Shown piece by piece: positions 17,090-61,932 of a stretch of 64,000 nt of DNA (within the stretch, counting starts at the first letter, position 1; every line of letters starts with the position of its first letter). The notes under the pieces were generated by a model, which searched no databases, was not told the DNA's origin, and worked only from the letters and a program-made list of their open reading frames with translations. This DNA is from Azolla caroliniana (lineage: Eukaryota > Plantae > Polypodiophyta), in the NCBI GenBank assembly GCA_043228905.1, contig JBHGNT010000010.1:11718001-11782000 (forward strand). The letters run 5' to 3'. The position numbers and the translations under genes were made by a program.

Positions 17090-17750
17090 TATATCCTCTT
17101 TGGTTTTCCTAAAGTGTTTGGTGCTTATATAGTGTTATATTTTTCTAGTAATATATTATCCTCTTTGGTTTTCCTAAAGTGTTTGGTGCTAATATAACGT
17201 TAAATGTTTCTAGTCATGTATTATCTTCTTTGGTTTTCATAAAGTGTTTGTTGCTCTTGTAGTGTTAATTGTTTCTAGTAATGTATATATCTTATTTGGT
17301 GTTTGTTAAGTGTTTGGTGCTCTTATAGTGTTAAATGTTTCTAGTAATGTAATATCCTCTTTGGTTTTCATAAAGTATTTGGTGCTCTTGTAGTGTTAAT
17401 TGTTTCTAGTAATGTATTATCCTCATTGGTTTTCATAAAGTGTGTGGTGCTCTTGTAGTGTTAACTGTTTCTAGTAATGTATATATCCTCTTTGGTGTTC
17501 GTTAAATGTTTGGTGCTCTTATAGTGGTAAATGTTTCTAGTAATGTAATATCCTCTTTGGTTTTCATAAAGTGTTTGGTGCTCTTATAGTGTTAACTGTT
17601 TCTAGTACAATATATATCCTCTTTGATTTTCATAACGTATTTGGTGCTCTTATAGTGCGAACTGTTTCTAGTAATGTATATATCCTCTTTGGTTTTCATA
17701 AAGTGTTTGGTGACCTTATAGTGTTAATTGTGTCTCGTCATGTATATATC
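17090..17750. repeat. Tandem array, about 65-bp unit
   Basis: ctagtaatgt...tcctctttggttttcataaagtgtttggtgctcttatagtg; period 65 (17341 to 17406). Confidence 0.93.
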
Positions 17751-24166: not shown

Positions 24167-24263
24167 ATAATACCAGCATCAATACCAATCTCAATTAACA
24201 TACAAGGTTAAGGTTCACACTGCTGCCTATTGTTACATCGGCGTGATCCTCTACTTCTGTAGA

Positions 24264-25830
24264 CTATGCTAGTACTAGCCCACCTAAATATGGAGTAGAT
24301 TCTAGTATTAAACCTACATTACAACTAATTGTAGAATGCAATGTGTACTATGTTAGTACTAGCTGACCTAAATATAGGATGGATTCTAGTACTACACCAA
24401 CTGTACACCTAAAAGTCTCCTAAATTTGTACTATGCTTGTCCTAGCCCACCTAAATATAGAATGGATTCTAGTACTAAACCAACTGTACAACTAATTCCA
24501 AAATGAAGTGTGTACTTACTACCATGTCAGTACTAGCTCACTTATATATAGGATGGATTCTAGTACCAAACCAACTCTACATGTAAAGGTCTCTTGAAGC
24601 ATGTACTATGCTAGTACTAGCCCACCTAAGTATAGAATGGATACTAGTACTAAACCAACAGTACAACTAATTGCTGAATTAAATGTGTACTATGTTAGTA
24701 CTAAATCACCTAAATATAGGATGGATACTAGTACTACAACTGTACACCAAAAGGTTTGCTAAATTTGTACTATGCTTGTCCTAGCCCACCTAAATATAGA
24801 ATGGATTCTAGTACTAAACCAATTGTACAACTAATTCCAGAATGAAGTGTGTACTATGTTAGTACTAGCTCACCTAAATATAGGATGGATTCTAGTACTA
24901 CACCAACTGTACACCTAAAGGTCTCCTAAATTTGTACTATGTTTGTCCTAGCCCACCTATATAGAGAATGGATTCCAGTACTAAACCAATTGTACAACTA
25001 ATTGCAGAATGAAGTGTGTACTATGTTAGTACTAAGTGCTAGCTCACTTATATATAGGATGGATTCTAGTACTACACCAACTCTACACGTAAAGGTCTCC
25101 TGAAGTGTGTACTATGCTAGTACTAGCCCATCTAAATATAGAATGGATACTAGTACTAAACCAACAGTACAACTATTTGCAGAATGAAATGTGTACTATT
25201 TTAGTTCTAGCTCACCTAAATATAGGATGGATACTAGTGTACTACATCAACTATACACCTAAGGGTCTCCTAAATTTGTACTATGCTTGTCCTAGCCCAC
25301 CTAAATATAGAATGGATTCTAGTTCTAAACCAATTGTACAACTGATTCCAGAATGAAGTGTGTACTATGTTAGTACTAGCTCACCTAAACATAGGATGAA
25401 TTCTAGTACTACATCAACTGTACACCTAAAGGTCTCCTGAAGTGTGTAATATGCTAGTACTAGCCCACCTAAATATAGAATAGATTGTAGTACTAAACCA
25501 ATTGTACAACTACTTACTGAATGAAGTGCATACTATGTTAGTACTAGCCCACGTAAATATAAGATGGATTCTAGTACTACATGAACTATACACCTAAAGG
25601 TCTCTTGAAGTGTGTAATATGCTAGTATTAGCTCACCTAAATATAGAATAGATTGTAGTACTAAACCAATTGTACAACTACTTACTGAATGAAGTGCATA
25701 CTATGTTAGTACTAGCCCACGTAAATATAAGATGGATTTTAGTACTCCACCAATCGTATACCTAAAGGTGTCCTGAAGTGTGTACTATGCTAGTACTAGC
25801 CCACCTAAATATAGAAGGGATTCAGTAAGA
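24264..25830. repeat. Tandem array of alternating about 84/83-bp monomers (about 167-bp dimer) in an intron of the RING gene
   Basis: ctagcccacctaaatatag recurs at 24781, 24865 and 24948. Confidence 0.93.
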
Positions 25831-38233: not shown

Positions 38234-40520
38234 GAGCTATTGTTTCTAATGTTTCTAAATTTGTTGGTTTTTGTTTTCTTCTTGATTGATGGTGATTGAT
38301 TGACGTGTGGTCAACCTTGATCCAGATAACAATCAACAAAGGATGTTTATATTTACTTGTATTTTTATTTTCTTATTCTTTCTTCTCCTAATCTAATCAT
38401 GTATAGTCAATATGTGTTGTTTTTCATTGAGTCAATGATGTTGTAGTGGTAATTAATTGGTTGTATAAAATGTTTACATATGTGTATGAGGTCAATACCT
38501 CATTTGACATATATTTGATATGTGATGTGTGTCGTATGCGTACGAGGTTAATACCTCAATTGCATATTACGTTCACATACATGTTATGTATGTGTATGAG
38601 GTCAATACCTTGATTTCTAAGTAAATGATATACGTTTGGTGTCGTATGCGTAAGAGGTCAATACCTCAATTGCGTATTAAGAGTAACCCTTATTATTGGA
38701 TGTTTCGTGTGCGTAGAGGCTATATGCATCGATTACGTGTCTTGATTTCATCATATGTTGGCTATTTGATGTTACGATTTTTTTTAATATACGCATATGT
38801 GGTCACATGTATACATATTTGATTGTATGTATGTGATAAATATAAATATGTGTATGCTAGTTATAACGTAATTTCTATATCGAATGTTGTCCTTTTCGAG
38901 GAAAGGATCTTGGTGGCCATCCTCACATTTTTGTGAGAATGGCGTAGTCACCATCCTTTTTTCAACAATCTTTTTTGTTGACATCCCCGTTGGTCACTTT
39001 GATTTCGTTACATAATGAAACGATCATAGCCACAATGATGGTGAGAACGTAGGGCTTGACCCACTTCATGTGAGGTCCCTCCTAGGACACACATATTCAA
39101 CATCCCTCCCTCATTACGTGGATATGTTGCCACCATGAGATCATTCTTACGAAAGGCACTCGTAATGACGTAACCATGTGATGGGCCACGTGGGCCTACT
39201 ACGAAAAGAGGGCTCATTTGGCTTGACCATTAAGTTGCACTTTGGCCTATGCCATCGTAATTATGAGACTTGAGGTTAGGTAACGTATGAACATCTTGAC
39301 ATGTATGTTTCTTTTAAAGAAAACATATATGGGCAAATGCCTCGCATATCTCTTATACACATAAAACGTTAAACATTCAACACGAGCAACCTATTTGATT
39401 AGCTCAAGTGTTTAATCCATTTGTTCTTGAGGTCTCAAGTTCAAATATGACCAAGACCATACAACATTGTTGATACATATGACTATAATACGTGTTTAGA
39501 CTCTAGGTCTAATTGCACTTTGGGGTCCTCGTAATAGGACTTAAAGAGCCGAAACCACATACGTCTGCACAGAAACATAGTTTATTGTTAACATGTTTTT
39601 CGTGTATAAACTATTCATGACGCGAACATACATGGTTGAGCCTCGGGGAGCTGCCATGAAAACAATCGATATAGAGATAAGGGAGAGACATTCATTTGTC
39701 ACCCCCATGGTTTTTAAAACACCTTTGTGTTACCATTGTAACCTAATCTTGAACCTCATCTCATATGTCTAGAGGGTATTGACGTGAGATCATGATATCG
39801 ATTAAAGTTTGCCCGTGATATGTTTACATCACGACATGATGTTATGACTATTTGTCTGACCTTATCCTATTTCTTTGCCAAAAATAATCATTCAATAGAT
39901 TGGAATAACGACCCGATGTCATCCGCTCAAGCGGAAGGAACTCAAGGAAATCCTCCTGGACCAATGTCCATTGAGTTGTATTTTTTACAAATACAACATT
40001 TCCTTAGTTCAACTGCGCATCAGATGTCCGAACTTTGGCAATCTCAAAGTTCTCTCAAGGTACGTGTCATTAGTTTACAACGTGAGACTAATATACCTGA
40101 TGAGCGTTAGGGTGAACCATCATTTGTTGTAAAGCCATTTACAGGAGAAAAAAGGAAAGAACCGAAGAAGCAATTTGCACGTGGCTAGGCCGATGGGAGT
40201 CTCATTTTGAGCTCTATCCCACGCCAGATAGTGTGAAGATTGCATATGTCGGTCAAGAACTAGGGGGTAAGGTCGCCGCCTGGTGGCGTGGGCTCCGAAC
40301 TTTGGGGAAATTGCCCAGACCTGGACAGATTTTGTCACAAATTTCAAGGGCCAATTTCTGCAACCTCCATCTCGAACCGAGGCAGATAAGCATTAATGAA
40401 CCTCTCTAGCCGAAAATTTTCTTTGCTAGAAGACTATGTCCACCATGCTAGAACCCAAATCCAAAAATCGGGTCTAGAATGGGACAATTGGTTAATAGCT
40501 TGTTTTGTCAATGGCATCCC

Positions 40521-43507
40521 TGTTATCCGTATAGGCGTACAGAGGGATAAGGTGTATTGTGTATGGTCTAAGGTGTTTAATGTATACGAGTATGTGTGAG
40601 CACATGCATAATTATGTGCATGAGACAAGAATGTAATGGTCTTCTTTGTGTAACGATCCTATTAACTGTTACATTATGTACAATAAAAACCCCTTCTGGG
40701 GCACATAATAGATATAGATTTTTCCCCTTGCATTCAGTGTCATTTTCTATTTGTCTTTCTCTCACGCGCTCTCTCTAACTTAACCCCTTGGGAGGGGGCT
40801 TCAGCCCCCACCCAACAACACTTTTGGCACGTCCAGTGGGACGACTCTCCCCTGAGAAGAAGTCACGTCTCCCTCCCTTGTTCTCCTTCTCCAACACTAA
40901 TCTCTCTCTCTCTCTCTCTCTCTCTCGTTGCATCTCTGTGTTGTGTGTGTATCTCTCCCCTAACTCGGAAGAAGAAGTAGTGGAGAAGAAACGCAACAAC
41001 AACCTGGAATGTTGCAATAGCCTCGAAGAAGCACAGATCTATCCAGCAACAGAAAGAAGAATCATGCATGAGTGAAATTTGCATACTAGAGAAGAATTAG
41101 AAACTTGCACAAAACAACTCAAAGACGAAGTGGATATATATCAACGGAAATGGAAGAAGATGAAGTGGTAGAGCCTTTCTTAGAGTTTATGGCCAAAGAT
41201 GGAACATGGTATGCTGGCACCGCTACCTGAATAGGCCCATCATCAAGTGACATGCCTGTTCATTTCTTGCACTAGTCGGAGGATGAAGATGAGACATGGC
41301 ATCCTCATTCTTTAAAATACTCTTATCATGTTGATGCCATGATCCACCCTATCATATTCATGCTCATGTTGTTCCTTCCTTTTCCTCACTCAGTTTGAGA
41401 GACAGTGTAGCGTGCCCATGGCGACCTTCACCTCCATCTGCATTCCCTCTGCTGAAGCAGATGCTGGTGATGGTTATGGCGGTAGTTATGGCTCTCTCGA
41501 CTCTCCGAACAACCATTACTCTCTCTCTCACCTCCAAAGCCCTTCCGCTTTCCCTTCATATCTCTCCGATGAAGACAAACTCCAATACAGTCAGATCGAT
41601 CCGCTTAGATGGGATTGCATCTCCGATGATCTCCATGGTTTGAGTCCTCTCTGTTTCCTATGTACATAGGAAGATTTCATGGACGGAAACCCTAGATCAC
41701 CCAAATGATGGATGCGAAGCATTATCTGTCAAAGAAGACACATTGGGTGAGGATATAAACGACAATCCCCATTCCATCTAATTCCTGCTCCATCATGTCC
41801 AATCCATGTTTCTTCAACAACAGAGGATATTCCTTCTCTCACCGTGAAAGGTCAATCTGTTCCACTTGAAAGGTCTCCAGGGTCAGTGGATAATACTGTG
41901 TATCATATTACTAATGATATTTTGCCAGATAGATTATCACAAGCGAATGCATGTATGCAGCATCTTCCATCTATGTTGTACACTTTCCTTCCAAGTGATT
42001 CTCATCAGTGTGGCACAGTGGATTCCATTTTAATTCCACCCTTGCATTTCCAAGAAAATATGTGTGGTCATGCATCATCATTCTCTTGCAATGATCATTT
42101 CCTTGATGGTTGTGACCTTATATGCTCTTGCTCCATCCCTCAATACCTCATTATGGCCAATCTTTTGTTAGTTGAATCTCTTCAGGGATTGAAAAGATTT
42201 TCCGATAAAGATGTTCCCTTCACTACAACCTGGTGGGCATGTAGAACACATTATGCACATCAACGGATATTAGCAGAGCCATCATCAGCAACAACTACAT
42301 CATCACCACCACAGCCAGCTCCAACAATAATTGCATCCATTCTCGAGAGCTCTACTCCTACCATCACTGGCAAGGACAATTACAACATCTTCAGCAGAAT
42401 GGTCCTTGAAATCAGCACCGCCATCGCCATCGCTGTTGTCGCCATCCGCCAAAATCAAAAGTATGGATGCCCACTGAGTAGCTCAAAACTCCAAGAGCAA
42501 CAAGAAGCCAAGCAACAACTGAGAGGAAAGAAGACCGAAAGGAATAAGAAGATGAAAGTAGACAGAAAGAAAGGAAAAGAAGCTGAAATTAGAAAGCATG
42601 GAGGATGAAAGGAAGAAAACAAGAAGATGAAAGCAGATGGTAACTACTACCATCACCAACACCACATAGGAGAGAGGGCATACAGAGAAATCTCCACAAA
42701 CAGACAGAGAATAAAGGAAGAAAGAAGAAAAGTAGAAAAGAAGAGACTTAAAATAAAGAAGGGATGACATGAGAATTATAATAACTCGAGGGCACGCAAA
42801 CAAATTTCGGAAACAGAAGGGCAGGACACGAGATTTCTAAAACCGGAGGGTACTTAATATAATTTTAAGGAAGAAAACATATCTATATCTATATATAAAC
42901 ACCCACATACACCCACAATTACTGATAAACCTAAATGACGATACCACATTGGATAAGACTATTGGTGTGTGATCCAATCATGCGATTATGCTGACTGAAC
43001 GAGAAGGTTTGTGTCAAGCCAGCTCTAATCGAAGTTATCGATCGTCGAGTAGTAATCCGGTCGAGGAATTTCCGACCGTGAGAGAAGACCGTTGGATGTC
43101 CGGTCAACAAGAGTTTTTCGGTAGGGGCTTGTGGGTTCGACGTGCAATGCACTATCCCACAGGCATGACAGGTGTTATCGGTATTGGTGTACGGAGGGAT
43201 AAGGTGTAATGTGTATGGTCTAAGGTGTTTAATGTATACGAGTATGTGAGGATGAGTATGTGTGAGCAAATGCACAATTATGTGCATGAGACAAGAATGT
43301 AACGGTCTTCTTTGTGTAATGGTCATATTAACCGTTACATTATGTACTATAAAAACCCCTTATCGGGCACATAATGGATATAGATTTTTCCCCTCATTTA
43401 GTGTCATTTTCTATTTGTCTCTCTCACGCTCTCTCTCTAACTTAACCCCTTGGGATGGGTGTGAAGCCATTCTAGGCTAGAATGGCTTCACCCCCCACCT
43501 AACAACA
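40521..43507 (+). mobile_element. Non-autonomous LTR element (LARD/TRIM-like, 2987 bp)
   Basis: LTRs 40521-40820 and 43173-43507, TSD ATCCC, tRNA-Arg PBS 40825-40842, no recognisable gag/pol. Confidence 0.92.
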
Positions 43508-46500
43508 ATCCCCAATTTGGATTATCACTGGATAGTGCACGATAAGGATCCAAAATCCTTCGAAGACGTTGTTGAAATAGTTCTTCGCTATCAACGTACA
43601 TCGAAGGACCATAACAAACCCAACGAAGCGCTCGGGACTAAGCAGTCACAATTCACTGGGAAACGTAAGACACCCAACGAATTCATGGATTGTGATTGTA
43701 AGGGACAACATCCGATTTACGCATTCTGCAAAAAGAAGGGTCATACAAAAGAACAATGTCGAAAGCTCCAATGGAAAGAGCACGACAACAAAGAAAAAGT
43801 TGCAGATTCTTAATGTCCTTGAGGTCTATACACATCATTTAAGTAATTGTCAATGTTCTTTCCTTCACTATGTATTAGGACCCAATGATTTACTACGTGC
43901 AAACGGGTATATCAATGGATCTCCCGTACAATTTTTATTTCATTCGGGAAGCTCACAGAACTTTGTAAATGATCGTTTGGTTCAGATATGGGGAATCCAA
44001 CCCACTGTAAGTGATCACACATATAAGGTGCACTTGGTTGATGGAAGAGTACAATACATCAATGGGGAGATTCATTCCTTAGGAATTTTTATTGATACTT
44101 ATAGAGGAAGTAGACTTCCATGTAATGAATCTTTGTACCACTGATGTAATACTGGGTTATCCCTGGTTTTTTAAATAAAAACTCTTCTTTATCTATTGAT
44201 TGGGTTCATCATTCAATTACTTTTGTACTGAATGATTGTACTCATTTTATTCAATGTGTTAAAAAACAATATCTTTCGATTGTTTCCTCGCCATCAATAT
44301 CCGAGTTTTCTTATTCTACTTTATTTTATTGTGTACTTGATCCGGACATTCACGTTTACAATATTGATAATGTCTTAGTTCAATTATCATATTTTGAACA
44401 ACAACAACTCGATGAAATATTAAATGATTTTTGTGATGTTTTTTACGTGTGAACTACCACATGGGTTACCTCCTAAATGTAATATAGACCATCGTATCAA
44501 TATTGTACCTAGTGTTGCACCAATAAGTATACCTCCTTATCACTTAAGTCAATTCGAAGAGGATGAGGTATCTAAGCAACTCAAGGACTATTTACGAATG
44601 GGTTATATACGTTATAGTAAATCTCCATGGGGTGCACTTGTTCTCTTGGTAAGAAAGAAAGAGGGCACATGGTGTAAGTGTATTAATTACTGACGCCTAG
44701 ATAAAGTGACGATCAAGAATTCATATCCATTGCCCCAGGCTGATGATCTAATTGACCGTCTCCAGGGAGCTCGGTATTTTACGAAACTTGATCTCCGTAC
44801 GGGCTACCATCAAATTCGTACAAGTGAGGATGATATTCCTAAAACGACATTTTGTATGCGTTTTGGCCATTATGAGTTTTTGGTTATGCCTTTTGGTTTG
44901 ACCAATGCTCCAGCCACATTTCAACAAGAAATGAATGACATTTTCCAAGAACAACTTCGAAATTTTGGCATTATTTTCTTGGATGATATTCTAGTTTATA
45001 GTCGTACATTAGAAGAGCATGCTAAACATCTCCGCTTTGTTTTACAAACATTGCGCGACAAGCAATTCTACGTGAATATCTCAAAATGCGACTTCTTCAA
45101 GAAATGAATTACTTATCTTGGACATCTCATAACCCAATGAGGAGTTGAAATTGATCCTTCTCGCATCGAGAAAGTCAAACTTTGGCCCACTCTTCGGAAT
45201 ATTCGAGAAGTCTGATCATTCCTTGGTTTTGTCGAGTTTTTGTGAAAATCCCTTCGTGATTACTCCCAATTAACGACGTTGTTTACTGATCTTCTAAAAG
45301 GTCGAACGCGTAAGTCTACAAAACCTATTGTGTGGAATGCTACACTAGACCTCACCTTTAAGGAACTCAAGGACCTGGTGTGCAATGCTCCTTCGCTTCT
45401 TTTACCTCATCCTTCAAAACCTTTTGAGGTTGAAACCGATGCAAGCGATTATGCTATAGGTGTTGTCTTATATCAAGATCGTAAACCAATAGCATTCGAG
45501 AGTAAGAAACTTGATTTTGCTCAATGTCGATATACCGTTCAAGAAAAGGAATTATTTGAAGTTATACATGCACTCAAAAAATGGTGTCATTATCTTTATG
45601 GAAATCATTTTGTGGTAACTACGGACCACGAGTCCTTGAAATATTTCTATGACCAACAAGAGCAGAAAGGTCATAAGGCACGATGGGCTGATCTCATCTA
45701 GGACTTCGATTTTTCCATACGATATCGTAAAGGTTCCATGAACACTGTCACTAATGCACTAAGTCGCATCCGTGAAGTTAGCATGCTTAGCTTCACTGAA
45801 ATAACATTAGATCTTTATGATTACCTTCGAGGAAAGTATCCTGATGACAATTATTTTGCGAAATACTAGGCAAGAGTTGAGTCTGGAATAGACACCACCA
45901 CATCCTCGAAGGAATACTTCCACATTGCTAACGGTCTCCTCTACCATAATGGGAAGGTTTATGTTCCAAATTTGCCCGAGGTTAGAAAGAGAATTCTTTT
46001 TTAATGCCATGATGCACCCTCCACAGGGCACCTTGGAATACATGGTACCCTTGTTCGCATCTCCACTTAATTCTATTGGCCTAAGATGCATCCTTATATA
46101 CATAGTTATGTGACGCAATGTCACCAATGTTAGGTTAACAAAGCTGAGCGACTTAAAGCTACAAGACTTTTACATCCCTTGGACATTCCCAATAATAAGT
46201 GGGAAAGTATATCCATGGATTTTATTGTTAGCCTTCCTCACACCCAAAAAGGCCATGATGTCATCTAGGTTGTGGTTGATAGACTAACTAAAATGGCCAG
46301 ATTTATTGCTATTAAAACCATGGTAATAGCTCCTGAATTGGCTTACCAATTCATTGACAAGTTATTTCATTTTTATGGATTACCGATGGATATCGTGAGT
46401 GATCAAGATCCAAAGTTTACTAGTGACTTCTTGATGCAAGTCTTTCAGAAGTTAGAAACTACGTTGAGCATGAGCTCCACGGATCATCCGATCGAAAGAC

Positions 46501-49566: not shown

Positions 49567-50860
49567 TTCCCTCTTTTTCTTGAGAATCGTATCAAGCGTT
49601 ATCATCGCCATGGAGTCCGTTAGCAAGCAAGAGTATGTTCGAGTCGTCTCTGAGCTCGAGCATCTCATAAACAAGTTTCTAGCTCTAGAGCAAGAGAATC
49701 AACGATTGCTTGGAGATTTACAACAAGTAAGCATAGAAAAGGCGCAACAATATGACGAGTTATCAACACGTGTATTGCAACTCGAAACAACATTGCGGTC
49801 TCTTCATCAACAAGCTTCGATGCAACAAAGCTCTCCCAAAGAACCAAAGATTTGTTTGCCCGGGAAGTTCGATGGTAATCGATCACAGTTTCGAGGATTA
49901 TCGATTGGTCAAGAAGAAAGATGGGTCTTTACGATTGGTCATGGATTATCGAGGTTTAAACAAAATCACAGTTCGAAATAGATATGTTCTACCCTTGATA
50001 TTGAGTTTACTAGAGCGTCTTAGTGGAGCTAAAAGTTTTCACAAAGCTAGACCTTCGAGGTGCATATAACCTTGTGCGGATACGTCCAGGAGACGAATGG
50101 AAGACAACATTTTGTACCCAATATAGACATTTCGAGTACACAGTTATACCTTTTGGTCTCACGAATGTGCCCATAGTTTTTCAACACATGGCGAATGATA
50201 TTTTTCGCGACTTCTTGGATTCATTTACCATAATATATCTTGATGACATCTTGATCTACTCTAAAAGTCAAAAAGAGCATGACACACATGTCCGCCAAGT
50301 CCTCCAACACTTACGAGAATCTGGGCTCTATGCCAAACTAGAGAAATGTAGCTTTGATCAAAACCACGTGGAGTTTCTAGGGTATGTGGTTTCACAATAA
50401 AGTATATATCAATGGATCCATCCAAGGTGCAAACAGTTCTAAACTGGGAAACACCTCGCTCAGTGCGTGATGTTCAATGTTTCTTAGGATTTGCGAAATT
50501 TTACCGCAAATTTATCAAGAACTATTCAAACATCGTGATGCCTCTCACGGAGCTTACACCAAAGAACAAGTCGTTCACATGGAGTTCCAGTGCCGCCAAA
50601 GCTTTTGAAAACCTAAAGAGAACATTCACTTCTACTGTAATTCTACTTCATGCTAACCTAGAAAAACCCTTTATCATCGAGGCGGATGCATCTGATTTTG
50701 CACTAGGAAGTATCTTGTCGCAGGTTGGAGATGACGGAAAGCTGCATCGAATTGCTTTCCATTCACACAAATTCGAAGTAGTAGAGATCAATTATGAGAT
50801 TCACTGCAAAGAGCTCCTAGCCATTATAGACTCGTTTGAACAATGGAGGCATCTATTTGA
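49027..50860 (+). mobile_element. Truncated chromovirus-like (Tcn1/sushi-type) Gypsy: LTR about 49027-49465, gag start, internal deletion, RT-RH
   Basis: LTR ends TTGACA; gag [14 protein letters not shown]; [27 protein letters not shown]; RH EADASDFALG; about 27-bp repeats at 49170-49280. Confidence 0.85.
49052..49120 (-). other. tRNA-like A/B-box module inside the LTR
   Basis: Minus strand TAACCTAATGGCTAGAG ... GGGGTTCGAGTCAC at tRNA spacing. Confidence 0.6.
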
Positions 50861-51743
50861 TGTCCGCCGGAATAGTATCTGACAGACAGAAGCGCAGAAG
50901 TATTATAATATAGTAAGAAACACATGTATTGGTTCACACGGGAAGCGTGAACGGCTAAAGGTCCTATGTATATAAAAGGCAGAAATCCTCTGTAAGAGGT
51001 AGCGTGTAATTTTGGTGCATAGAGCGTTTCTCTAATAGAATACTATCTTCTCTGATTTCTGTGCATATCAGTGGTTTTATCTACTGTGTTTCTTGTTCTC
51101 TCTTGTGTACTGTTAATCGTAAGGGTGTATGCGTAAGTGCGGATACTAGTGCACTTCCTAAGGAGTTCGGTTGTCGCCGTCTCGCTTATACGCTACTAGG
51201 ATACGAGGGAGTATCCCATTACGTATTACGGTATGACGGTACCATTCCTTACAACACAATCACCTTGAGGCCTACGTCGAAGGACTGACCATAGGCAGTG
51301 TTCCTAATCGGTAACATGTTTGGCACGCCCGGTGGGACAGTGCATTGCATGGTGAACCCATTCACCATGGCAACTGTTCTCGACCGGAACTCCATTGGTC
51401 GTCTCAACGGTTAGAAATCCCTCGACCGGATCACTACTCTACGATTGATAACTTCGATCGAAGCTTTGCTTGACTTGAACCTTCTCGTTCGGTCAACACA
51501 AGTCGCGATTGGATCATACACCAATCGGCTAGTTCAATGTGGCATGGGTCGTGAAATCGTGTTGTGCATTTGTGTAATCTCTAGTTCATTCATGTGAGTT
51601 GGGTTTTATGTTTTATACACCTTGGTCTTTCGAATTTTTACCCTCAAGTTTTTCTTTTTTCTTTTTTGAAATTTTATTTTTGGCCCTTGAGTTTTCAAAA
51701 TTCTGCATTCTGCCCTCCACTTTTTGAAATCTCACGTCATGCT
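50861..51743 (+). mobile_element. 5' LTR (50861-51316), tRNA-Arg PBS (51321-51338) and leader of another LTR element
   Basis: TGT...GGTAACA with TATATAAAAG, then TGGCACGCCCGGTGGGAC. Confidence 0.8.
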
Positions 51744-53349
51744 TGTTAAGATTTTGGTCCCTCCGGATGGGATGATGAAGGCCCGGTGAGAACCGGATGA
51801 TGAGTACCCGGCAAGGAAGACCCGGTGAGAACCACTCACCGGATGAAGGGACATAGATGTCAATATGTTTTTGTTAGCCCATTGTGGCTATATTTGTAAA
51901 TAGCCCGAAGTCATATTAGTATAAAAATGACCTAGGGAAAACACGATTATTGTGGTTGTCATTATTTTTTGTAGAGTGTTATTGGTGTAAGTGTTGTACA
52001 GAGCTTAGTAGAGAGAGATATAGAGACAGAGACAAAGTGAGTATCTGCTGTAACCTCCGTCAGGCGAAGATTGTGAGCACGAGGTCATTGCCTCTATGTT
52101 CCCCTGTTGTATTCCTCTCGACATAGTGATAGTTTGGAGTCTGTGGGCTCCCGTGGTTTTTCCCTCTCAGGGTTTTCCACGTTAATATCTTGTGTACTCT
52201 CTTGTTTACACTGTTTTGTGTATACGTACATCTATCTCCACATTCCCAATTCTGTGTTTGTAATTCTCAAAGAAGTGATGGAAGACTCGGTTGTGGTTGA
52301 GCATTATTCCGCATATTCTTTTCAATCTGGTATCAGAGCGAAACGACACAGAAAATGGAAGATTCATTTGGCGGGCATGTTCAAGCTCACCGGCTCCAAC
52401 TACTTAGTCTGGAAGTCGAAGATGAGGGACATGCTAGTGGTTAAAGATCTTTGGTTGTCAGTTCAGTTCGGGGACATGAGACCGGAGAAGATCGATGCCA
52501 CAGTGTGGGAGGTAATGCACATGAAGACAACGGTATAAATCCAGTGTTTCATCGACATGAGCTCGTTTGCCAATTTCAATGAAGAGAGCAAGGCTCATGA
52601 GCTATGGGAGAAGATCAGCATTATGTTTCAGAACAAAAATGTTGTTAATCGGGTATCGGTATTCCGGAAGCTAGTAAGACTCCGGTACCAAGATGGCTCC
52701 AGCATGGTGGAGCACATGAATGCCTTCTAGGGACTGATTCACCAGGCAACATCGTTGGAAGTACCTCTCGCCGATGAGGTATTAGCATTGCTCCTGCTTG
52801 GTTCCCTCCCAGATAGTTGGGAGACGTTAGTTATCACTTTGGGCGACGTCGGGCCGGAAGGAAAACAGTTATCCCTAGCAAGAGTCAAGTCGAGCTTGCT
52901 AAATGAGGAGGCTTGTCGAAAAGACAAGGACACAAGCTCCAACTCGAAAGTGCTCCTTAACGAATCAGAATGCGGAAGACAATGGAACCGGAGTCCCCAG
53001 AACCGGGAAAAGTCGGGGACACGGTCAAAGTCAAGGGGAAGGCCCACTTGCTTCTACTGTGGGAAGCCGGGGGCACTTCAAGAAGAACTGTCGGCATTTC
53101 CGGAAAGACAAGGAAACCGACGGTACCGATTCGAAGCGGTCACCGGACCGGGACGGTAAAGACCGGAGGGGATCAGACTGGAAGGGAATGACGGTGTCGT
53201 AGTGTAGGTTGCACACTATGTGGAAATTATATTTTTGTCCCTCCGGATAGAGAATGGAGTGCTCGGTGAGAACCGGAAGAAAACGGCATACCGGCAAGGA
53301 AGAGCCGGATAAAGAGACATAAATGTAAAAGAAAAAAAAGAAATACTCA

Positions 53350-53420
53350 ATGCGCAGGGCGTGATTCGAACTCTACACCTCCACGTTGACAAACCCCAAC
53401 CTTACCATTACATTAACTTA
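53350..53420 (-). other. tRNA-like A/B-box module in the LTR (second copy at about 59795-59865)
   Basis: Minus strand TAATGTAATGGTAAG ... GGAGGTGTAGAGTTCGAATC, followed by an oligo-T run; homologous to 5616-5686. Confidence 0.62.
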
Positions 53421-53951
53421 TCTTAAGTGTTTTAAATATAGATTTAATATGTATAAGACCTTTATTTATGCATACCTTTATTAAAAGGTAAATCGTGTAT
53501 TTTTTTAATATATGAAAAAGACGAGACACCAAAAATAACTCATGCACATCTAGCGTGCATGAGCCCTATACTTAGGAAATAAAAAAGCATCACATGCACA
53601 TTTAGTGGACATGAACACTTTTTGTAAAAAAAGCATGAAGCCATGCTTAGCTCTTCCTTCCTTATATAAGGAGGAGAGAAATATGTAAAGGGTTGTTGAT
53701 TATTTGGGATTAAGGATTAATCAATACATAAATTATTCGTGGGATTCACGATTTATACATCTACTTCTCTCTTAACACCCTAAGTACCAATTAATATAGT
53801 ATACTCGTGTGATTCACGAGTTTCTTATCTTTCTCTTTGCTATTTACTCATAATTAATCTCTATCTCACGAACTTCTTTCTCCTAGTCCAAGACCTCTGT
53901 GGTTCCCACCCGACTCACGCAACGATCCGGAGCCGAAAGGCACGACACAGT

Positions 53952-53969
53952 TGGTGAACCCGACGTGAA
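53952..53969 (+). promoter_or_regulatory. Primer binding site, tRNA-Trp
   Basis: TGGTGAACCCGACGTGAA, complementary to the plant tRNA-Trp 3' end (..TTCACGTCGGGTTCACCA) as I recall it. Confidence 0.85.
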
Positions 53970-53985
53970 GACGGGTGGCAAGGAG

Positions 53986-56025
53986 ATGGAGGCTCAACAA
54001 GCTAACAATATGATGGCGATGTTCGAACGGATGCTTCAAGAACAACGCACGATGTCGGAGATTTCGGCATCAGTAGAGCGGCTCGTGCAACGCAACGGGC
54101 AATTTAATGGTAAGGATGTGTCGCGATATTTGCAGGACTACAAGGCGGAGATGCTCCGGTGCCGGGCTTCGGAAGGACTGCAAGTGACATCCTTTAACCG
54201 GGTGGCGACCGACGGGCTTCAAGGGAGTATCCACGGGTTGCAACAACAAAATCCGACGTGGGAAGCATTCGTAGAGGCGTTAAAGACCACGTTTGCCATC
54301 GAGGACTCCTCCAAGGCAACGCGGAGGGGATTCGAGGATTGGGTGGAAACGTCAGGTAAGGGGCTGAAGGTCCTCGAAGTGTTTTCGACATTCGAAAGTC
54401 GGTTCGGGAGGTTGTCCGCGAGAGATCAAACTATTCTTGCACCGGACAAAGTCATCATGTTTTTGCGAGCTGTGGACGTCCGGGACCGGAAAGATCTCGG
54501 AGTGCTTCTTGAGGACACGACCACCGAAAGCGGCCTCACCGAAACATGGGAAAGCGTGCGGGATATCGTCGCGCGGTACACGAAGAGGGGGCAATGGCTT
54601 GCCAACGAAGAAAAGAGGGTTTCGGAACCGATTCCGAAACCGAGAACGGGACTGGAAGACCATCAACCGAGGGCTCGGGAGATTACGGCCGAGAAGGGAG
54701 TCGACGCGTCTACGGTGGAGCAGCTGCTGAAGGAGATGGAGAATCTAAAGATCGCGATGGTGAAGAAGTCGGATGACCACCCCACAAGCTCCAAATATAC
54801 GGATCGACGGTGCATATGGTGCGATAGCGCCGAACACGATCGGAGGGATTGCGACGACCATAAGGAGGCGCTACGACGGGATCTCATCTACTACGAGGGA
54901 AACCGGATTCATTCGATGGACTCTCGGAAGCCACTCCGACCGAACTTCCGGAAAGGCGGCATGAAGAAGGTGCTCGAGGAGGAGTTAGCGGCAAGAAGCA
55001 ACTATGCGACAACCGCGGGAATATGTGTCGGGGAGTCATCGGGAGCGAAGGCGTCTTTCTGGCCGGAGGTGCTAGGAAACACCGAGAAAACCGACTCCAA
55101 CGATATCCGAAACACCGCGGAAGGCGTCCGGGAAGCTACGGGATGGGAGTGCCCTGTCGACAAGAATAGCATATACGCCCTGTGTCAATTACATGAGGTG
55201 TATGTGGACGAGAAACGACGGCGCACGGAGGATGCGGCCGGACCATCGAAGATACCGGAAAGCTGGAACTCCGGAGGTAAGGGAAAAGAAAAGGCGACTC
55301 CGGCATTCAAGCTCGCCTCGGACATAGAACAACAAACCGACTTGAAAAGAGTGTTCGAGGAAAGAATCTTGGATAGCCGGGTAGATTTTTCGCTGCGGGA
55401 ACTACTCGGAATAGCGAAGAAGGAGTTTCACGATCTTCTCGTGGATCTCGTGAAAAGGAAGAGACAAAGTACGGAGGAAAATGCTCCAAGGGTGAATGCA
55501 AATACCGTTTCAATGAACGACACCGAAGTGGAAGGCGAAATTCCGAACTCCCACTATACAAGGCCACACTGGGCACGTGCGACTACGGAGACTCCGGTCC
55601 GAATCGGCAACATCAAAGAACCCGTGCTAGCATTGATTGATCACGGATCGGAGATCAACTTGATGTCCAAGGAGTTCTACCGAAAGGGGAAGTGGCCTAT
55701 AAACACCAACCATGGATGGAAGATTCGGGCAGCCACGAAAACGACAGAAGACCTATTTGCTACTTGTCCGGATGTGACGGTAAAGATCGGGGATGTCGAA
55801 ATTGACCAAAATTTCTTTGTGCAGGATGAGGTTTCACATTCTGTCATCCTCGGCCAACCCTTTATCACGGCTTCACGGATGGAGACGAAGGTGCTCGATA
55901 GTGGTGCGGCTTTTGCGCGAATTCGGAGCCAAAACGGAGGGAAATCCGTCCAATTCCTAACAGTGCCGGCAAATCACGAAAGGAACAAGAGGGAACTCTT
56001 GTCCCAAGTGAGAATGGATTTTTAA
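53986..56025 (+). CDS. gag: ORF1 Gag-protease
   Basis: First ATG after the PBS; FNGKDVSRYL, zinc knuckle CIWCDSAEHDRRDC, protease LIDHGSEINLM/ILGQPF. Confidence 0.93.
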   Translation: MEAQQANNMMAMFERMLQEQRTMSEISASVERLVQRNGQFNGKDVSRYLQDYKAEMLRCRASEGLQVTSFNRVATDGLQGSIHGLQQQNPTWEAFVEALKTTFAIEDSSKATRRGFEDWVETSGKGLKVLEVFSTFESRFGRLSARDQTILAPDKVIMFLRAVDVRDRKDLGVLLEDTTTESGLTETWESVRDIVARYTKRGQWLANEEKRVSEPIPKPRTGLEDHQPRAREITAEKGVDASTVEQLLKEMENLKIAMVKKSDDHPTSSKYTDRRCIWCDSAEHDRRDCDDHKEALRRDLIYYEGNRIHSMDSRKPLRPNFRKGGMKKVLEEELAARSNYATTAGICVGESSGAKASFWPEVLGNTEKTDSNDIRNTAEGVREATGWECPVDKNSIYALCQLHEVYVDEKRRRTEDAAGPSKIPESWNSGGKGKEKATPAFKLASDIEQQTDLKRVFEERILDSRVDFSLRELLGIAKKEFHDLLVDLVKRKRQSTEENAPRVNANTVSMNDTEVEGEIPNSHYTRPHWARATTETPVRIGNIKEPVLALIDHGSEINLMSKEFYRKGKWPINTNHGWKIRAATKTTEDLFATCPDVTVKIGDVEIDQNFFVQDEVSHSVILGQPFITASRMETKVLDSGAAFARIRSQNGGKSVQFLTVPANHERNKRELLSQVRMDF

Positions 56026-56079
56026 AGCGGACTGTTGCGGAGTGGGGAAGTGATAGTCCGAGAAGCCCTGATACCCCAC
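56016..56079 (+). promoter_or_regulatory. Predicted -1 frameshift signal (GGATTTT plus pseudoknot)
   Basis: Slippery site 56016-56022; stem 56028-56038/56050-56060; GTGGGG 56042-56047 can pair with CCCCAC 56074-56079. Confidence 0.82.
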
Positions 56080-59000
56080 ACAGGAAGAAAACTCTCGGAG
56101 CAAAACAAGTACGAATCGGCCCGGATGGGGCATCTACGTACACGGCCGTAACCAGAGGAATGAAGAAACAATACCGACAAGTGGAGGATAAGTTATGGTC
56201 GGCATCAATAATAAAAGAAGACGAAGAAATCGTGGGAGTGATCGAGGAAGTGTTCTATGGGAATACACTACAACGGCTTGAAGAGCTTGCGGAAGATAAA
56301 AGCCAAGGGAACCGGGTAGTCCCGGTGGAATCGTTCGAGATGTACGAGATCGTTGCGAAAATGGGGCCGGATGCGCTCCGCAAAGAAGAAGCAATGGTAA
56401 GTACGAAATACAAGACCGTGGAGAAGAAGGTGAAACCGGCCGCGGGACCACTACCTGCCGATAGCGAACAAAAGAAGAAAGAAGTCTCAGGAGATCCGAC
56501 ACTTCGGAAGTCCGTGGATATCGGACATGCCTTCACAGATGAGACCCGGAAGAAACTTCGGATCGGTGGAGGTGGGTTCCTCTTACAAGAAGAAGAAAAA
56601 CAGTTTCGAGAGATGTTGGAGCAACATGGCAAAGCATTCGCGTTCACATCGAGGGAGATCGGATGCATTGATCCAAAGATAGTGGAGCCGATGGTGATTT
56701 TCACGATTGATCATGTACCGTGGAACCTGAAGCCGATTCCGGTGCCACGGGCGCATATTCCGAAAGTCATCGACTTGCTCAAGGAGAAGGTGGCGATGGG
56801 GATTCTAGAGCCATCAAGTGCTCCATACTCAAATCGATGGTTTACGGTTCCGAAGAAGAATGGGTCACTCCGATTCATCCAAGACTTGCAACTGGTGAAC
56901 AAGGTCACGATCCGGAACTCAGGAGTCGGTCCGATAGTGGACGAATTCGCGGAAGCTTTTGCCGGACGTGCGATATACTCCATCGGGGACCTATACTCGG
57001 GGTATGACCAATTCCAACTAGCCGTGGAGAGCCGAGACATCACTACCATGCGGACACCGATAGGACTAGTTCGAATGTGCACACTACCACAAGGAGCGAC
57101 AAACTCGGTTGCACATATGATGAACGCGATGAACAAGGTGCTTCGAGATTGCATCCCGGAGATAACGATGCCGTTTCTAGATGACATTCCGATGAAAGGA
57201 TGCGCGGTGGAAGAAAAAGATGAGACTATGGATGATCGGGGATGCCGAAAGTTCGTGGTCGACCATATTCATGATTGCGAGAAAGTGTTGCGAAAGCTAG
57301 AAGATGTGCACCTAACACTTTCCGGGGAGAAATCGGCATTCGGGCAAGAAGAAATATTGGTGGTCGGACATCTATGTGGACCCTACGGCCGAAGACCGTC
57401 ACCAACAAAGATCGATGCGATTCAAGCTATGAAGGAAGTATGTGAGTCAACATCGGAAGTCCGAAGGTTTCTGGGTGCGTGTGCATTCTATCACATATGG
57501 ATTCCGCACTATGCACATATAGCGGACCCGCTCTATCACTTGTTGCGGAAAGGTAAGAAATTCGAGTGGAAACCGGAACACACTAAAGCCATGAGGAAGC
57601 TCAAGAAGACACTATGGAGGGCGGAATCACTTAAGAAGCCAAGCTACGAGCGGCCAATCATAGTAACGGTTGATACAAGTCCAACCGGTATCGGGTGGGT
57701 CATCAATCAAGCCGACTCGGATGGTTCGCGGTATCCGATCCGATTTGGAGCAAAGGTCCTCAACGAAAGGCAACGCGGATATGCACAAGTCAAAAGAGAA
57801 TTGTGGGGAGTCGTGTCGGCGATAAAATCGGATCGGGATTATTTGATCGGAGCTGAAGTGGTGATCGAGACGGATTGTCTTCCGATACTCGGGATGATGC
57901 GGTGTTGTACGATACCGGATGTGGCTATGCTAAGGTGGATTGCATATGTCAAGTCACTTAATCCGGAGGTTCGACACATCTCGGGGAAGGACAACGCGGT
58001 AGCGGACATGTTATCGAGGGCGCGGTTTGAAGACGACATAACCGAATCAGATAATGAAGAAGTTTCCGAAGACTACTTCACGTCAGAACACATATGCCGA
58101 GTGAACGTGATCCGAGAATTCCGGGAAGAAGAATACGAGGGGGAAACCTTGATGATCGGGAAGATGCTACAAGAGGTCGAGGATTCAACCAATGATAAAG
58201 AAAGGAGAGCCGAGATCCGAAGGAAGAAGAGGCAAGTCCAAAAGTTCTTCTTGGAAAACGGTTTAATATGGAGGACGCCGAAAAGACCGGATGGGATACC
58301 ACTTCGAGTAGTCGGGACGAAAGAGCAACGAAACCGGATAATGTCCGAGTTCCACGAATCCAATTGGGCTGGACATCGAGGAACATGGGCAACTTTTGTG
58401 AAAATCAAGCAAAGATATTGGTGGAAGAACATGTATAAAGATGTCGCGGAGTTCACAGAAAGCTGCGAGAAATGTCAAGTCTACTCCGGGGTCCGACACC
58501 GAGATGAGCTGCATCCGACATTCTCACCGACAATCAACTTCAAGTGGATGGTCGACATTGTAGCTATGCCGACCGGGATTGGACAAAAGAAATACTTGGT
58601 GTTAGCTCAAGAAGATCTCACAAACCAAGTTGAAGGTCGAGCGCTTCGGAGGAAAACGTGTGCCGCGGTGTGCCAATTTCTTTTGGAAGAAGTGTTTTGT
58701 AGGTACGGCTGCGTAGGACAAGTGATTGCGGACCGGGGAGAACTCGACTCGGACAAAGCTAGGGGATTCTTCGCCAAACATGGAGTTCGGTTAACGTTGA
58801 CAACGGCCTACAATCCGGAGGCCAACGGGAAGATCGAACGAGGACATAGTCCGATCGTGAAAGCACTTGCGAAGGCATGCGACGGAAGGGTGAAGGATTG
58901 GCCACAAATGCTTCCGTATGCACTATGGGCGGATCGGACGACGCATAGCTCCGTGACCGGTTACATGCCGGCAGAACTCATGACCGGACAAGCACCGGTA

Positions 59001-59627
59001 ATGCCAACGGAAACCGCAATCGCGACATGGACAATACTACCGTGGAAGGAAGAGATGAGCCGGGAAGAACTACTAGCGGTCCGGATACGACAACTGGAGG
59101 GAAGACCGAAAGATGTAGCGGAGGCGTCACGTCGACAACAAGAAGCACGGTTCCGGAACAAAAGCCGGTTCGACACAAAGCACCGACTACGACCGAGGAG
59201 GATTGAAGAAGGAGATTGGGTGATCGTTTATGATAGTAGCTTGGACCATCAACATACAACGATGCGGAAATTCGCGAAAAGGTGGTTCGGGCCGTACGAG
59301 GTTCGGAAGGTCTTCGACAACGGGACGTACCGACTGTCCGAGTTGGATGGAACAATACTACGAGTGCCTATAGCCGGGAAGCGGGTGAAGATTTTCAAGA
59401 AGCGGACCGACGACAAACCTTATGTGATCCAAGTCGAGGCCGACAACGAGGAGCAATCGGACGAAGACCACAATGATGCGGGAAGCGAAGAAAGTGGATT
59501 ACAACTCATAGTCGACATAAGGGGAGAATCGGAGGAAGCTTCGGATGAAGACGGATACGAAGAATCAAGAACTTCGGCACATACCGGAGGATGTGCGGGT
59601 TTGGAGGGGGCGAGTGTCGTAGTGTAG
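56022..59627 (+). CDS. pol: ORF2 Pol (RT-RNase H-integrase), -1 frame
   Basis: Open from the slippery site to TAG 59625-59627 inside the 3' LTR; RT, RH and IN motifs are present; no chromodomain seen. Confidence 0.95.
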   Translation, partial: LKRTVAEWGSDSPRSPDTPHRKKTLGAKQVRIGPDGASTYTAVTRGMKKQYRQVEDKLWSASIIKEDEEIVGVIEEVFYGNTLQRLEELAEDKSQGNRVVPVESFEMYEIVAKMGPDALRKEEAMVSTKYKTVEKKVKPAAGPLPADSEQKKKEVSGDPTLRKSVDIGHAFTDETRKKLRIGGGGFLLQEEEKQFREMLEQHGKAFAFTSREIGCIDPKIVEPMVIFTIDHVPWNLKPIPVPRAHIPKVIDLLKEKVAMGILEPSSAPYSNRWFTVPKKNGSLRFIQDLQLVNKVTIRNSGVGPIVDEFAEAFAGRAIYSIGDLYSGYDQFQLAVESRDITTMRTPIGLVRMCTLPQGATNSVAHMMNAMNKVLRDCIPEITMPFLDDIPMKGCAVEEKDETMDDRGCRKFVVDHIHDCEKVLRKLEDVHLTLSGEKSAFGQEEILVVGHLCGPYGRRPSPTKIDAIQAMKEVCESTSEVRRFLGACAFYHIWIPHYAHIADPLYHLLRKGKKFEWKPEHTKAMRKLKKTLWRAESLKKPSYERPIIVTVDTSPTGIGWVINQADSDGSRYPIRFGAKVLNERQRGYAQVKRELWGVVSAIKSDRDYLIGAEVVIETDCLPILGMMRCCTIPDVAMLRWIAYVKSLNPEVRHISGKDNAVADMLSRARFEDDITESDNEEVSEDYFTSEHICRVNVIREFREEEYEGETLMIGKMLQEVEDSTNDKERRAEIRRKKRQVQKFFLENGLIWRTPKRPDGIPLRVVGTKEQRNRIMSEFHESNWAGHRGTWATFVKIKQRYWWKNMYKDVAEFTESCEKCQVYSGVRHRDELHPTFSPTINFKWMVDIVAMPTGIGQKKYLVLAQEDLTNQVEGRALRRKTCAAVCQFLLEEVFCRYGCVGQVIADRGELDSDKARGFFAKHGVRLTLTTAYNPEANGKIERGHSPIVKALAKACDGRVKDWPQMLPYALWADRTTHSSVTGYMPAELMTGQAPVMPTETAIATWTILPWKEEMSREELLAVRIRQLEGRPKDVAEASRRQQEARFRNKSRFDTKHRLRPRRIEEGDWVIVYDSSLDHQHTTMRKFAKRWFGPYEVRKVFDNGTYRLSELDGTILRVPIAGKRVKIFKKRTDDKPYVIQVEADNEEQSDEDHNDAGSEESGLQLIVDIRGESEEASDEDGYEESRTSAHTGGCAGLEGASVVV

Positions 59628-61394
59628 GTTGCACACTATGTGGAAATTATATTTTTGTCCCTCCGGATAGAGAATGGAGTGCTCGGTGAGAACCGGAAGA
59701 AAACGGCATACCGGCAAGGAAGAAAACGGCATACCGGCAAGGAAGAGCCGGATAAAGAGACATAAATGTAAAAAAAAAAAGGAAATACTCACTACTGCGC
59801 AGGGCATGATTCGAACTCTGCACCTCCACGTTAACAAACCCCAACCTTACCATTACATTAACTTATCTTAAGTGTTTTAAATATAGATTTAATATGTATA
59901 AGACCTTTATTTATGCATACCTTTATTAAAAGGTAAATCGTGTATTTTTTTAATATATGAAAAAGACGAGACACCAAAAATAACTCATGCACATCTAGCG
60001 TGCATGAGCCCTATACTTAGGAAATAAAAAAGCATCACATGCACATTTAGTGGACATGAACACTTTTTGTAAAAAAAGCATGAAGCCATGCTTAGCTCTT
60101 CCTTCCTTATATAAGGAGGAGAGAAATATGTAAAGGGTTGTTGATTATTTGGGATTAAGGATTAATCAATACATAAATTATTCGTGGGATTCACGATTTA
60201 TACATCTACTTCTCTCTTAACACCCTAAGTACCAATTAATATAGTATACTCGTGTGATTCACGAGTTTCTTATCTTTCTCTTTGCTATTTACTCATAATT
60301 AATCTCTATCTCACGAACTTCTTTCTCCTAGTCCAAGACCTCTGTGGTTCCCACCCGACTCACGCAACGATCCGGAGCCGAAAGGCACGACAACGGCAAT
60401 CGTGGCAAGTGAAGAAGAGTTGATGCTCATCACCGAGGAGAGTGAGTTGAACCTTGCCGGCGACGAGACAACGTGGGTTGTCGATTCCGAAGCGTCATTC
60501 CACCTTACCCCGGACCGGAAATGCTTCTCATCCTAACATGTTCGCATTCACAAGTGGAAGGATTGCGCATTCCACTTGTAGAGTCTTCTTGAAACTATCC
60601 AAATATACCCTCTCTACAAAAATTGGATGCACTATTATCACATGTTCCACAACTTGATTACAATTTGCAAATATAAAAATACATGATAGGTCTACGAGTG
60701 GAGATCATTAGAAATCATGCAAGTTTGGACGTGTTGATAAGTTAATGTAGGCACAATAAAGTTCAACAATGGCTTAATATGTCACTAATGTGCGACATGG
60801 GAAACACTAAGTTAAAGACTTATATTAATTTGGTAAGTTTTACAAAAATATGAGGTGTACTTGTATCCATACTAATAAAATGAGTTCTAATTTATACTTT
60901 GACCCATGCGTGCATGTATATAATGGTGGACAATGTAGGATAGTGCACTTTAGGATAATGTGATTGGAATAACTAACTTATTAAAGTATTCAATACTTGT
61001 ATTTAAAGTTGATCTAATCTATTCCTTAGTTTGGTCGTATGGGATCAAACCATATGTATATAATTGTGGACAATGTAAGACAGTGAACTTTAGGATAATG
61101 TGGTGGAAATAAGAAACCTATTAAGGCTTTCATACTTGTATTAAAAATTGATCTACTCTATTGCTTAGGTGATTCACACAGGGTCAAACTCCGAACGATA
61201 ACACTAGTGGAACTACAAGCGTATAAAAACATGCGGATAACGCTAGTGGAACCATTATCAACACACTACACAATCTAAGCAACAATGGAATAGAAACATA
61301 ATTGTTTTAACAATAGAAGACAAAGATCCATAATAACAACATGGACAGTCATGGCAACAGTTCTATGACCATGTTATGTTAAGGTAAACTTGGA

Positions 61395-61932
61395 CCAATC
61401 GATACGGCGTATCGAGTTCCTTTTTAAAACACAAACATTATACAGGAATTCGATACGATGTATCGAGTTCCTGTATAAAACACACATATTATACAGAAAC
61501 TCGATACGGCGTATCGAGTTCCTGTTTAAAACGCAAGCAAAATAGAGGAACTCGATATGGCGTATCGTGTTCCTGTTTAAAACACAAACATTATACAGGA
61601 ACTTGATACAGCGTATCGAGTTCCTGTTTAAAACGCAAACATAATACAGGAACTCGATACGGCGTATCAAGTTCCTGTATAAAACACACATATTATACAG
61701 GAACTCGATACGCCGTATCGAGTTCCTGTTTAAAACGCAAACAAAATAGAGGAACTCGATATAGCGTATCGAGTTCCTGTTTAAAACAAAAAACTTTAAA
61801 GAAGAACTCGATACGCCGTATTGAGTTCTTGTATAAAACCTAAACATCACACAAGAACTCGTACGTCGTATCAAGTTCATGTATATTGTTTGTGTTTTAT
61901 ACAGGAACTTGATACGCCGTATTGAGTTCTTG
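61395..61932. repeat. Tandem array of about 51-bp units, each a near-perfect palindrome
   Basis: ACAGGAACTCGATACG-G-CGTATCGAGTTCCTGT plus an A-rich linker; period 51 (61497, 61548, 61599, 61650); about 10 copies. Confidence 0.95.

Follow-up and report, generated by a model that had tools for sequence, protein, structure and literature searches.

In the parts of two accounts available to us, plus-strand priming from a polypurine tract (PPT) is presented as the rule for both retroviruses and LTR retrotransposons (PMC5371799, PMC6317226). The tRNA pairing of Ty1 and Ty3 is split and includes the T arm, and the available portions of the sources place it in minus-strand sites (PMC5371799, PMC3185511). 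TRIM/LARD elements and Helenus combine a non-coding interior mobilized in trans with tRNA-derived sequence in the element; in the available part of its description, the author states that the tRNA-like sequence of Helenus does not prime reverse transcription (PMC10886601). The element analyzed here, at 40521-43507 of the window (the whole 64,000-nt stretch of Azolla caroliniana DNA), shares the non-coding interior and the tRNA-derived sequence with the latter and a predicted split pairing with the former. Judging from sequence comparison, this element belongs to a Ty3/Gypsy clade that has no PPT, and we consider it likely that the plus strand of this clade is started by another molecule of host tRNA-Arg(UCU), bound to the minus-strand DNA.

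The element is a decayed, non-autonomous LTR retrotransposon copy and a member of a family that we call X. Its features are as follows.

40516-40520, plus strand: left target site duplication (TSD) ATCCC, read from the sequence
40521-40820, plus strand: 5′ LTR of family X (TGTTATCC...AACAACA), the same as the 3′ LTR in 275 of 296 columns
40825-40842, plus strand: forward primer-binding site (PBS), 4 nt past the 5′ LTR, matching the end of a tRNA-Arg(UCU) isoform over 18 nt with one mismatch
40843-42739, plus strand: non-autonomous interior without gag-pol or ORF2 homology
42740-43130, plus strand: 3′ untranslated region (UTR) of family X, by homology (an "inverted leader" in the earlier, sequence-only reading)
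43131-43140, plus strand: GTGGGTTCGA, sense copy of tRNA-Arg(UCU) positions 49-58 (5′ strand of the T stem plus T loop), by comparison with the tRNA gene L052
43141-43153, plus strand: 13-nt insert with the 4-bp hairpin GTGC-AAT-GCAC, between tRNA A58 and G59, by covariation
43154-43170, plus strand: inverted PBS, a 17-nt sense copy of tRNA 59-76 minus one base, decayed, with three changes from the usual form
43171-43172, plus strand: 2-nt spacer GG, read from the sequence (TG, GG or AG elsewhere)
43173-43507, plus strand: 3′ LTR of family X, by LTR alignment
43508-43512, plus strand: right TSD ATCCC, read from the sequence

The two LTRs have TG...CA ends and are 93% identical over the aligned columns. 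The sequence-only reading had placed an Arg PBS behind the 5′ LTR at 40825, and it is present (TGGCACGTCCAGTGGGAC); its match to tRNA-Arg covers the full 18 nt, compared with about 11 nt in most X copies. The interior gave no gag-pol match by tblastn or Pfam, and its stop-to-stop frame at 41751-42608 had no Pfam match. Before the 3′ LTR, the order is GTGGGTTCGA-CGTGCAATGCACT-ATCCCACAGGCATGACA-GG-TGTTATC, and the tRNA-Arg(UCU) gene of the genome ends in GTGGGTTCGAGTCCCACCGGGCGTG. As had been claimed, there is no PPT 2 nt before the 3′ LTR (7-8 purines per 15 nt at that place), and 43154-43170 (ATCCCACAGGCATGACA) matches the tRNA-sense 18-mer at 13 of 18 positions with one gap, stopping 2 nt (GG) short of the LTR. 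The distance is not the canonical PBS distance that had been supposed: the forward PBS of the family lies 4 nt from its LTR, the inverted site 2 nt. The window copy is among the more decayed X copies; the three changes in its 17-mer include the CCA (GACA), and the predicted duplex of its site is weaker (-22.5 compared with -31 to -35 kcal/mol, RNA parameters). The X element was inserted just upstream of the protease/RT region of another, distant Gypsy element (window 43508-46316). Elsewhere in the window, a further family has its 5′ end on the minus strand of about 1-371; it shows a short Arg PBS (TGGCACGCCCGGTTACA), matches family Y (described below) in gag and may belong to the same clade. 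Tandem arrays lie at 14400-16055, 17023-17744, 24187-25827 and 61350-61932, with periods of 72, 65, 84 and 51 nt, respectively; the units of the last array are palindromic.

The inverted site recurs throughout family X. With a query spanning the site/LTR junction, all 40 scored matches (from 677 candidates) crossed that junction, and in all 30 loci that were fetched the site lay 2 nt from the LTR, while the flanks differed among loci. Both LTRs were found in 10 of 20 longer X stretches, nine of these ten with the forward PBS and four with exact TSDs. When 30 X LTRs were collected by the LTR alone, blind to the motif, 12 followed the site, 6 were 5′ LTRs and 12 were solo or unresolved (one of them with a decayed site); no purine tract preceded any of these 30 LTRs, the maximum being 10 purines in 15. 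Among X copies found by DNA similarity, 54 of 57 were within 4 mismatches of the 17-mer. Insertions nested within several X copies (L041:2523-8375, L032, L037 and L046) include long, intact frames of Gypsy or Copia type.

The complete module consists of tRNA-Arg(UCU) 49-58, the 13-nt hairpin insert and then 59-76 minus one base. The T-arm match was present in 128 of 140 loci, compared with a mean of 3.6 and a maximum of 13 in shuffles, and the insert measured 13 or 14 nt in 135 of them; the 140 loci are those left of 151 after removal of 8 GCGC-for-GCGT matches without the module and 3 loci too close to the edge of a contig. The hairpin takes the forms GTGC/GCAC, GTAC/GTAC, GGAC/GTCC, GGGC/GCCC and GCGC/GCGC, and both sides were changed in 22 of 108 cells (27 hand-picked rows, whose relatedness inflates the count), compared with 0 of 500 shuffles. 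Among X copies, the 17-mer had a mean pairwise identity of 0.90 and the T arm plus hairpin one of 0.87, compared with 0.72-0.76 for the flanks and the LTR. The CCA end of the site is fixed at 2 nt from U3, while the letters of the spacer vary (TG, GG or AG). Substitutions at the T-arm CpG (26 G>A and 10 C>T) are suggestive only; the per-site rates pooled over the T-arm 8-mer do not discriminate, and the copies are related. Together, these comparisons support the view that the inverted site is conserved under selection and is not a relic.

Over the whole genome, the 17-mer followed by 2 nt and TGT has 1723 exact matches, and the control none. The first 30 of these matches fell into 7 LTR clusters, most with a sense ORF2 homologue upstream. 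The presence of the site in many unrelated LTR families rules out chance microhomology at LTR ends as the source of the 2-nt spacing. In family Y, a 1955-aa gag-RT-RH-INT frame, in which Pfam recognized gag, RT, RNase H and integrase in Ty3/Gypsy order, is accompanied by a forward ORF2 of 993 aa, and the site lies just past the ORF2 stop. All 30 copies picked by the ORF2 protein alone carried the site with at most 2 mismatches. The 5′ LTR of autonomous elements lay inside 12 of 20 upstream stretches; all 12 elements had the forward PBS, 7 had exact 5-bp TSDs, and their LTR identity was 0.90-1.00. The forward PBS of autonomous elements of another family, B, is of the Arg-UCU type, and we take the 10-mer of family Y to be of the Arg-UCG type. 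All full autonomous elements, with gag-pol and ORF2, read one way; a normal element lying on the minus strand was ruled out, the polarity being fixed by the forward PBS and the ORFs. The sequence-only reading had treated the inverted site as a feature of a non-autonomous element. This describes the window copy but not the clade, since autonomous gag-pol families have the site too; it is also present in young gag-pol elements of one RT clade.

The RTs of site-bearing elements are 71-100% identical to that of family Y, barring two partial long-branch rows, and a quick tree places them in one group (SH-aLRT 92) that excludes the liverwort and fern proteins; this tree holds named database proteins only, and four distant RT rows are nested in site-bearing hosts, the site not being theirs. 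Among named RTs, the closest come from ferns and liverworts, with approximately 50% identity. In a metagenome scan, the site was found in at least 123 stretches (121 loci used), mostly in one assembly set of related-host contigs, where the LTR starts were 67-97% identical to families of this genome or had no match; the viral contigs searched gave 0 matches to the site. Pfam detected no chromodomain after the integrase of family Y and, with profiles that include no dedicated archaeal RNase H one, only an RT-type RNase H. The 993-aa ORF2 had no Pfam match, and weak feature leads (0.81-0.82, all under 0.9) pointed to ATHILA and Transposase_32 clusters.

Starting from what is directly observed, namely the site, its position and conservation, the missing purine tract and the normal integration, we provide a putative mechanism for the clade. 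The minus strand would be primed by tRNA-Arg at the forward PBS. RNase H would then clear the RNA, and the minus-strand DNA would expose a two-part tRNA site, in which tRNA 59-76 could pair with 17 nt, leaving one base of the tRNA bulged, and tRNA 49-58 with up to 10 nt, the 4-bp hairpin looping out at the A58/G59 step. RT would extend from the CCA across the 2-nt spacer (4-nt in one family) into U3. Normally, the primer would be removed and the spacer trimmed by integrase, giving the TG...CA ends and 5-bp TSDs. The site would be passed on via RNA and not recopied from the tRNA, and hence would stay a selected 17-mer. As a by-product, plus strong-stop DNA, with its PBS-copy end, might anneal to the mirror site and flip the interior, producing the locus at 51321 and the reciprocal chimeras described below. 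Overall, we think that both strands are probably tRNA-primed, with the PPT dropped in favor of a hairpin-split site, and that flips have founded new subfamilies in a recently active clade.

If a second tRNA primes the plus strand, as the sequence-only reading had suggested, tRNA copies would be expected outside the 5′ LTR, as traces of a minus strand that ran into an unremoved plus primer. We examined 46 tRNA-Arg(UCU) matches (from 74, plus one earlier). Sixteen were CCA-ended copies at U5 ends, which are ordinary minus-primer read-through; 12 were CCA-ended without a match to any reference LTR, and 12 were gene-like copies without CCA. The other six, from four independent places, were mature, CCA-ended tRNA copies at the start of U3 in tRNA-sense orientation, and they lend the suggestion support. 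These copies consist of the true tRNA 18-mer without the hairpin, and their spacers are those of their own LTR families (TG, TATG, GG and TG). The clearest, L340/L386, reads unrelated flank, tRNA with CCA, TATG, 5′ LTR, forward PBS, interior, 17-mer with hairpin, TATG and 3′ LTR, and its LTRs are 99% identical over the readable ~180-200 nt. The second (L339/L400) reads site-LTR-tRNA-GG-LTR start and resembles a two-LTR junction, and the third (L401) is a tRNA copy at a solo-like LTR. The fourth, at 12.00-12.02 Mb of C2, is a chimera present in triplicate, where a related 3′ UTR has its end replaced by the tRNA copy; it is ambiguous, as it could also stem from a switch of template to free tRNA. 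A hybrid that keeps the 17-mer and then continues into upstream tRNA, as a template switch might leave, gave 0 matches, although its absence is unproven. Only one of the four places (L340/L386, at the outer end of a 5′ LTR) is thus clean, and the footprints indicate that priming from tRNA, or copying of it, can take place at the U3 end, which is not proof of the usual route. For two of the tRNA-LTR junctions, contigs of other DNA runs were compared, and no listed piece spanned either junction, which is uninformative either way.

Further tRNA-related features of the genome (G000) were noted. The C2 region at 12,003,800-12,024,500 (L101-L103) comprises near-identical tandem or segmental repeats in which autonomous Y and a non-autonomous partner are joined via shared LTRs; the repeats hold three tRNA-bearing LTR copies and may have been inserted as a concatemer or be due in part to the assembly. 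Nearly whole, CCA-bearing copies of mature tRNA-Arg(UCU) adjoin LTR-like ends at L379 (C4:20.10 Mb), L384 (C1:14.81 Mb), L396 and L406, and are tRNA retrocopies via primer read-through past A58. Genes or pseudogenes resembling tRNA-Arg(UCU) form tandem clusters at C11:0.69-0.70 Mb, C22:1.43-1.50 Mb and C4:19.5-19.6 Mb; the host thus has an amplified set of the primer tRNA of the site-bearing clade.

The nearest competitor to tRNA priming holds that the element primes from its own RNA, the CCA-ended, tRNA-like stretch surviving RNase H, or being cut at CCA, and acting as a non-purine PPT. This would keep the normal geometry, with a primer end 2 nt before U3. PPTs follow no strict consensus in the available part of one account (PMC3185511), and the acidic residues of RNase H are apparently intact in site-bearing elements. 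The sense RNA of the module can also fold on itself, but weakly (-11 to -16 kcal/mol), and far stronger pairing is predicted between tRNA 49-76 and the minus-strand module (-48 to -54 kcal/mol), both values resting on RNA and not RNA/DNA parameters. Moreover, 23 of the 109 distinct variants have G53>A, which would break a T stem of the sense strand. A true forward PBS followed the site and LTR in only 1 of 115 loci, where a full 3′ UTR upstream indicates a tandem, and the remnants at the U3 ends of the four places are true tRNA without the hairpin of the element. We therefore regard self-priming as unlikely.

A second alternative concerns the direction of copying: the tRNA could prime on antisense RNA, making the genome a two-way one with no special plus-strand priming on DNA. 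The features of the locus at 51321 are as follows.

50858-51316, plus strand: LTR of the autonomous family B, start approximate, matching the LTRs of the gag-pol elements L274-L277
51321-51338, plus strand: perfect 18-nt tRNA-Arg(UCU) PBS, 4 nt past the B LTR, by tRNA match
51339-51745, minus strand: 3′ end of family X (hairpin, T-arm match and 3′ UTR), flipped behind the B LTR, by homology; a nested element interrupts it downstream

The reverse-complement homology that had been noticed is real, 42941-43163 matching 51329-51545 with 76% identity in a 227-nt alignment (E 1e-36); its local score was 225, whereas 300 shuffles reached at most 35. The further similarity between 42780-42870 and 51660-51760 is real but weak (score 42 compared with a maximum of 38 in 500 shuffles). 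The stretch is not, however, the 5′ leader of another family, as had been proposed. Of the 30 best matches to the "leader" at 51321, 27 were the 3′ end of X, followed by an X LTR, and only 3 lay behind a B LTR with the 18-nt PBS and 4-nt spacer, and autonomous B elements have a different leader. Therefore, 51321 is likely a derivative in which a B LTR was joined to a flipped X 3′ end, the borrowing running opposite to the direction first assumed. The X LTR was also considered as a derivative of an inverted B LTR, but the two have no homology. In L104, the whole X interior is reversed behind a B LTR, and three chromosomes carry the reciprocal form (X LTR, 18-nt PBS and flipped 3′ end of B). Two reciprocal flips (L336 and L337) have TSDs, their LTR pairs are 98% and 97% identical, and a normal X site is kept at the 3′ end. 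The idea that interiors can be mobilized in either orientation between LTRs was borne out in that flipped interiors exist and can spread. The simplest cause would be that plus strong-stop DNA anneals to the mirror site and not to the PBS, which would point to B as the likely helper of X. Another X/B chimera, L074, has an X-type LTR followed by the forward PBS and leader of B. The Copia-like element that interrupts the 51321 locus holds an unrelated young Gypsy at 53194-60392 of the window, with LTRs 96% identical, a non-Arg primer site and a purine-rich tract before the 3′ LTR.

The spread of such flips, and the tRNA copies at U3 ends, would also fit a two-way genome. Nevertheless, the flipped forms keep a sense-orientation site before the 3′ LTR, the full autonomous elements share one polarity, and the second strand of a two-way genome would still need some primer. 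Replication from sense RNA, with the inverted site inherited through RNA, is favored because the forward PBS is overwritten by tRNA sequence, being tRNA-complete in 3 of 13 X 5′ LTRs (the window's included), whereas the inverted site was not seen overwritten. Forward read-throughs were also found in the whole elements L283 and L287. At the inverted spacing, only five 18-mers were found when the hairpin-side CT was required, none equal to a tRNA isoform seen, with a pattern slightly stricter than that behind the 1723 count. The overwriting argument is weakened by Ty1 and Ty3, whose PBSs are likewise not copied from the tRNA in the available part of PMC5371799. On balance, we find a two-way genome quite improbable.

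The third alternative, that the site serves tRNA capture or packaging, dimerization, strand transfer or as a small-RNA decoy while the plus strand is primed elsewhere, seems to us very unlikely. Ty3 offers a precedent, as its second tRNA-pairing segment at the 3′ end acts in minus-strand initiation according to the available part of PMC5371799. However, the Azolla site is tRNA-sense in genomic RNA and so cannot pair with the tRNA there; its CCA keeps a fixed distance from U3 while the spacer letters vary, and the PPT place holds no purine tract. Finally, the view that the site is a neutral remnant left by a single inversion or chimera, which the sequence-only reading had allowed for and which the decay and weaker duplex of the window copy might suggest, is hardly credible, being refuted by the 1723 exact copies over many unrelated LTR families, the conservation above the flanks and the covariation.

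If plus-strand priming by a second tRNA is correct, the normal route in a clade with over 1700 copies would be for RT to extend a tRNA primer on DNA, and RNase H would not need to spare a purine tract. The system is testable, as primer, position and structure are all defined. We would also predict two targets for 3′ tRNA fragments and elements that PPT-based element finders miss. An inverted PBS in place of the PPT was not described in the literature searched, outside which lie most subscription journals and supplements such as the REXdb tables.

Compared with known systems, the clade resembles Athila/OTA elements; any placement in that lineage would be provisional, as the tree holds no REXdb reference. 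It shares with OTA/Athila-like Ty3/Gypsy elements an extra forward ORF after pol, a tRNA PBS, 5-bp TSDs and, by Pfam, the lack of a chromodomain and archaeal RNase H (PMC6317226); the marker domains of Tat and chromoviruses are likewise missing from the helpers by Pfam. In contrast, a PPT is the norm in those elements, and the available part of the REXdb account mentions no inverted PBS (PMC6317226). Helenus differs in that its tRNA-like sequence is a Pol III promoter located within the LTR, and both PBS and PPT are kept, in the part of the description available (PMC10886601), whereas the window element, unlike Helenus and Cassandra, has its tRNA match outside the LTR and no PPT. With yeast Ty3, as far as its available description goes, the clade shares LTRs, a tRNA PBS after the 5′ LTR, the gag-RT-RH-INT order of the helpers and, under the proposed mechanism, an RNA primer end just before U3. 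Ty3 has a PPT there, and the Azolla clade has the tRNA-sense module in its place. Moreover, the second segment of Ty3 is complementary to the tRNA in RNA (PMC5371799, in the part available), whereas the site of the Azolla clade is complementary only on the minus strand.
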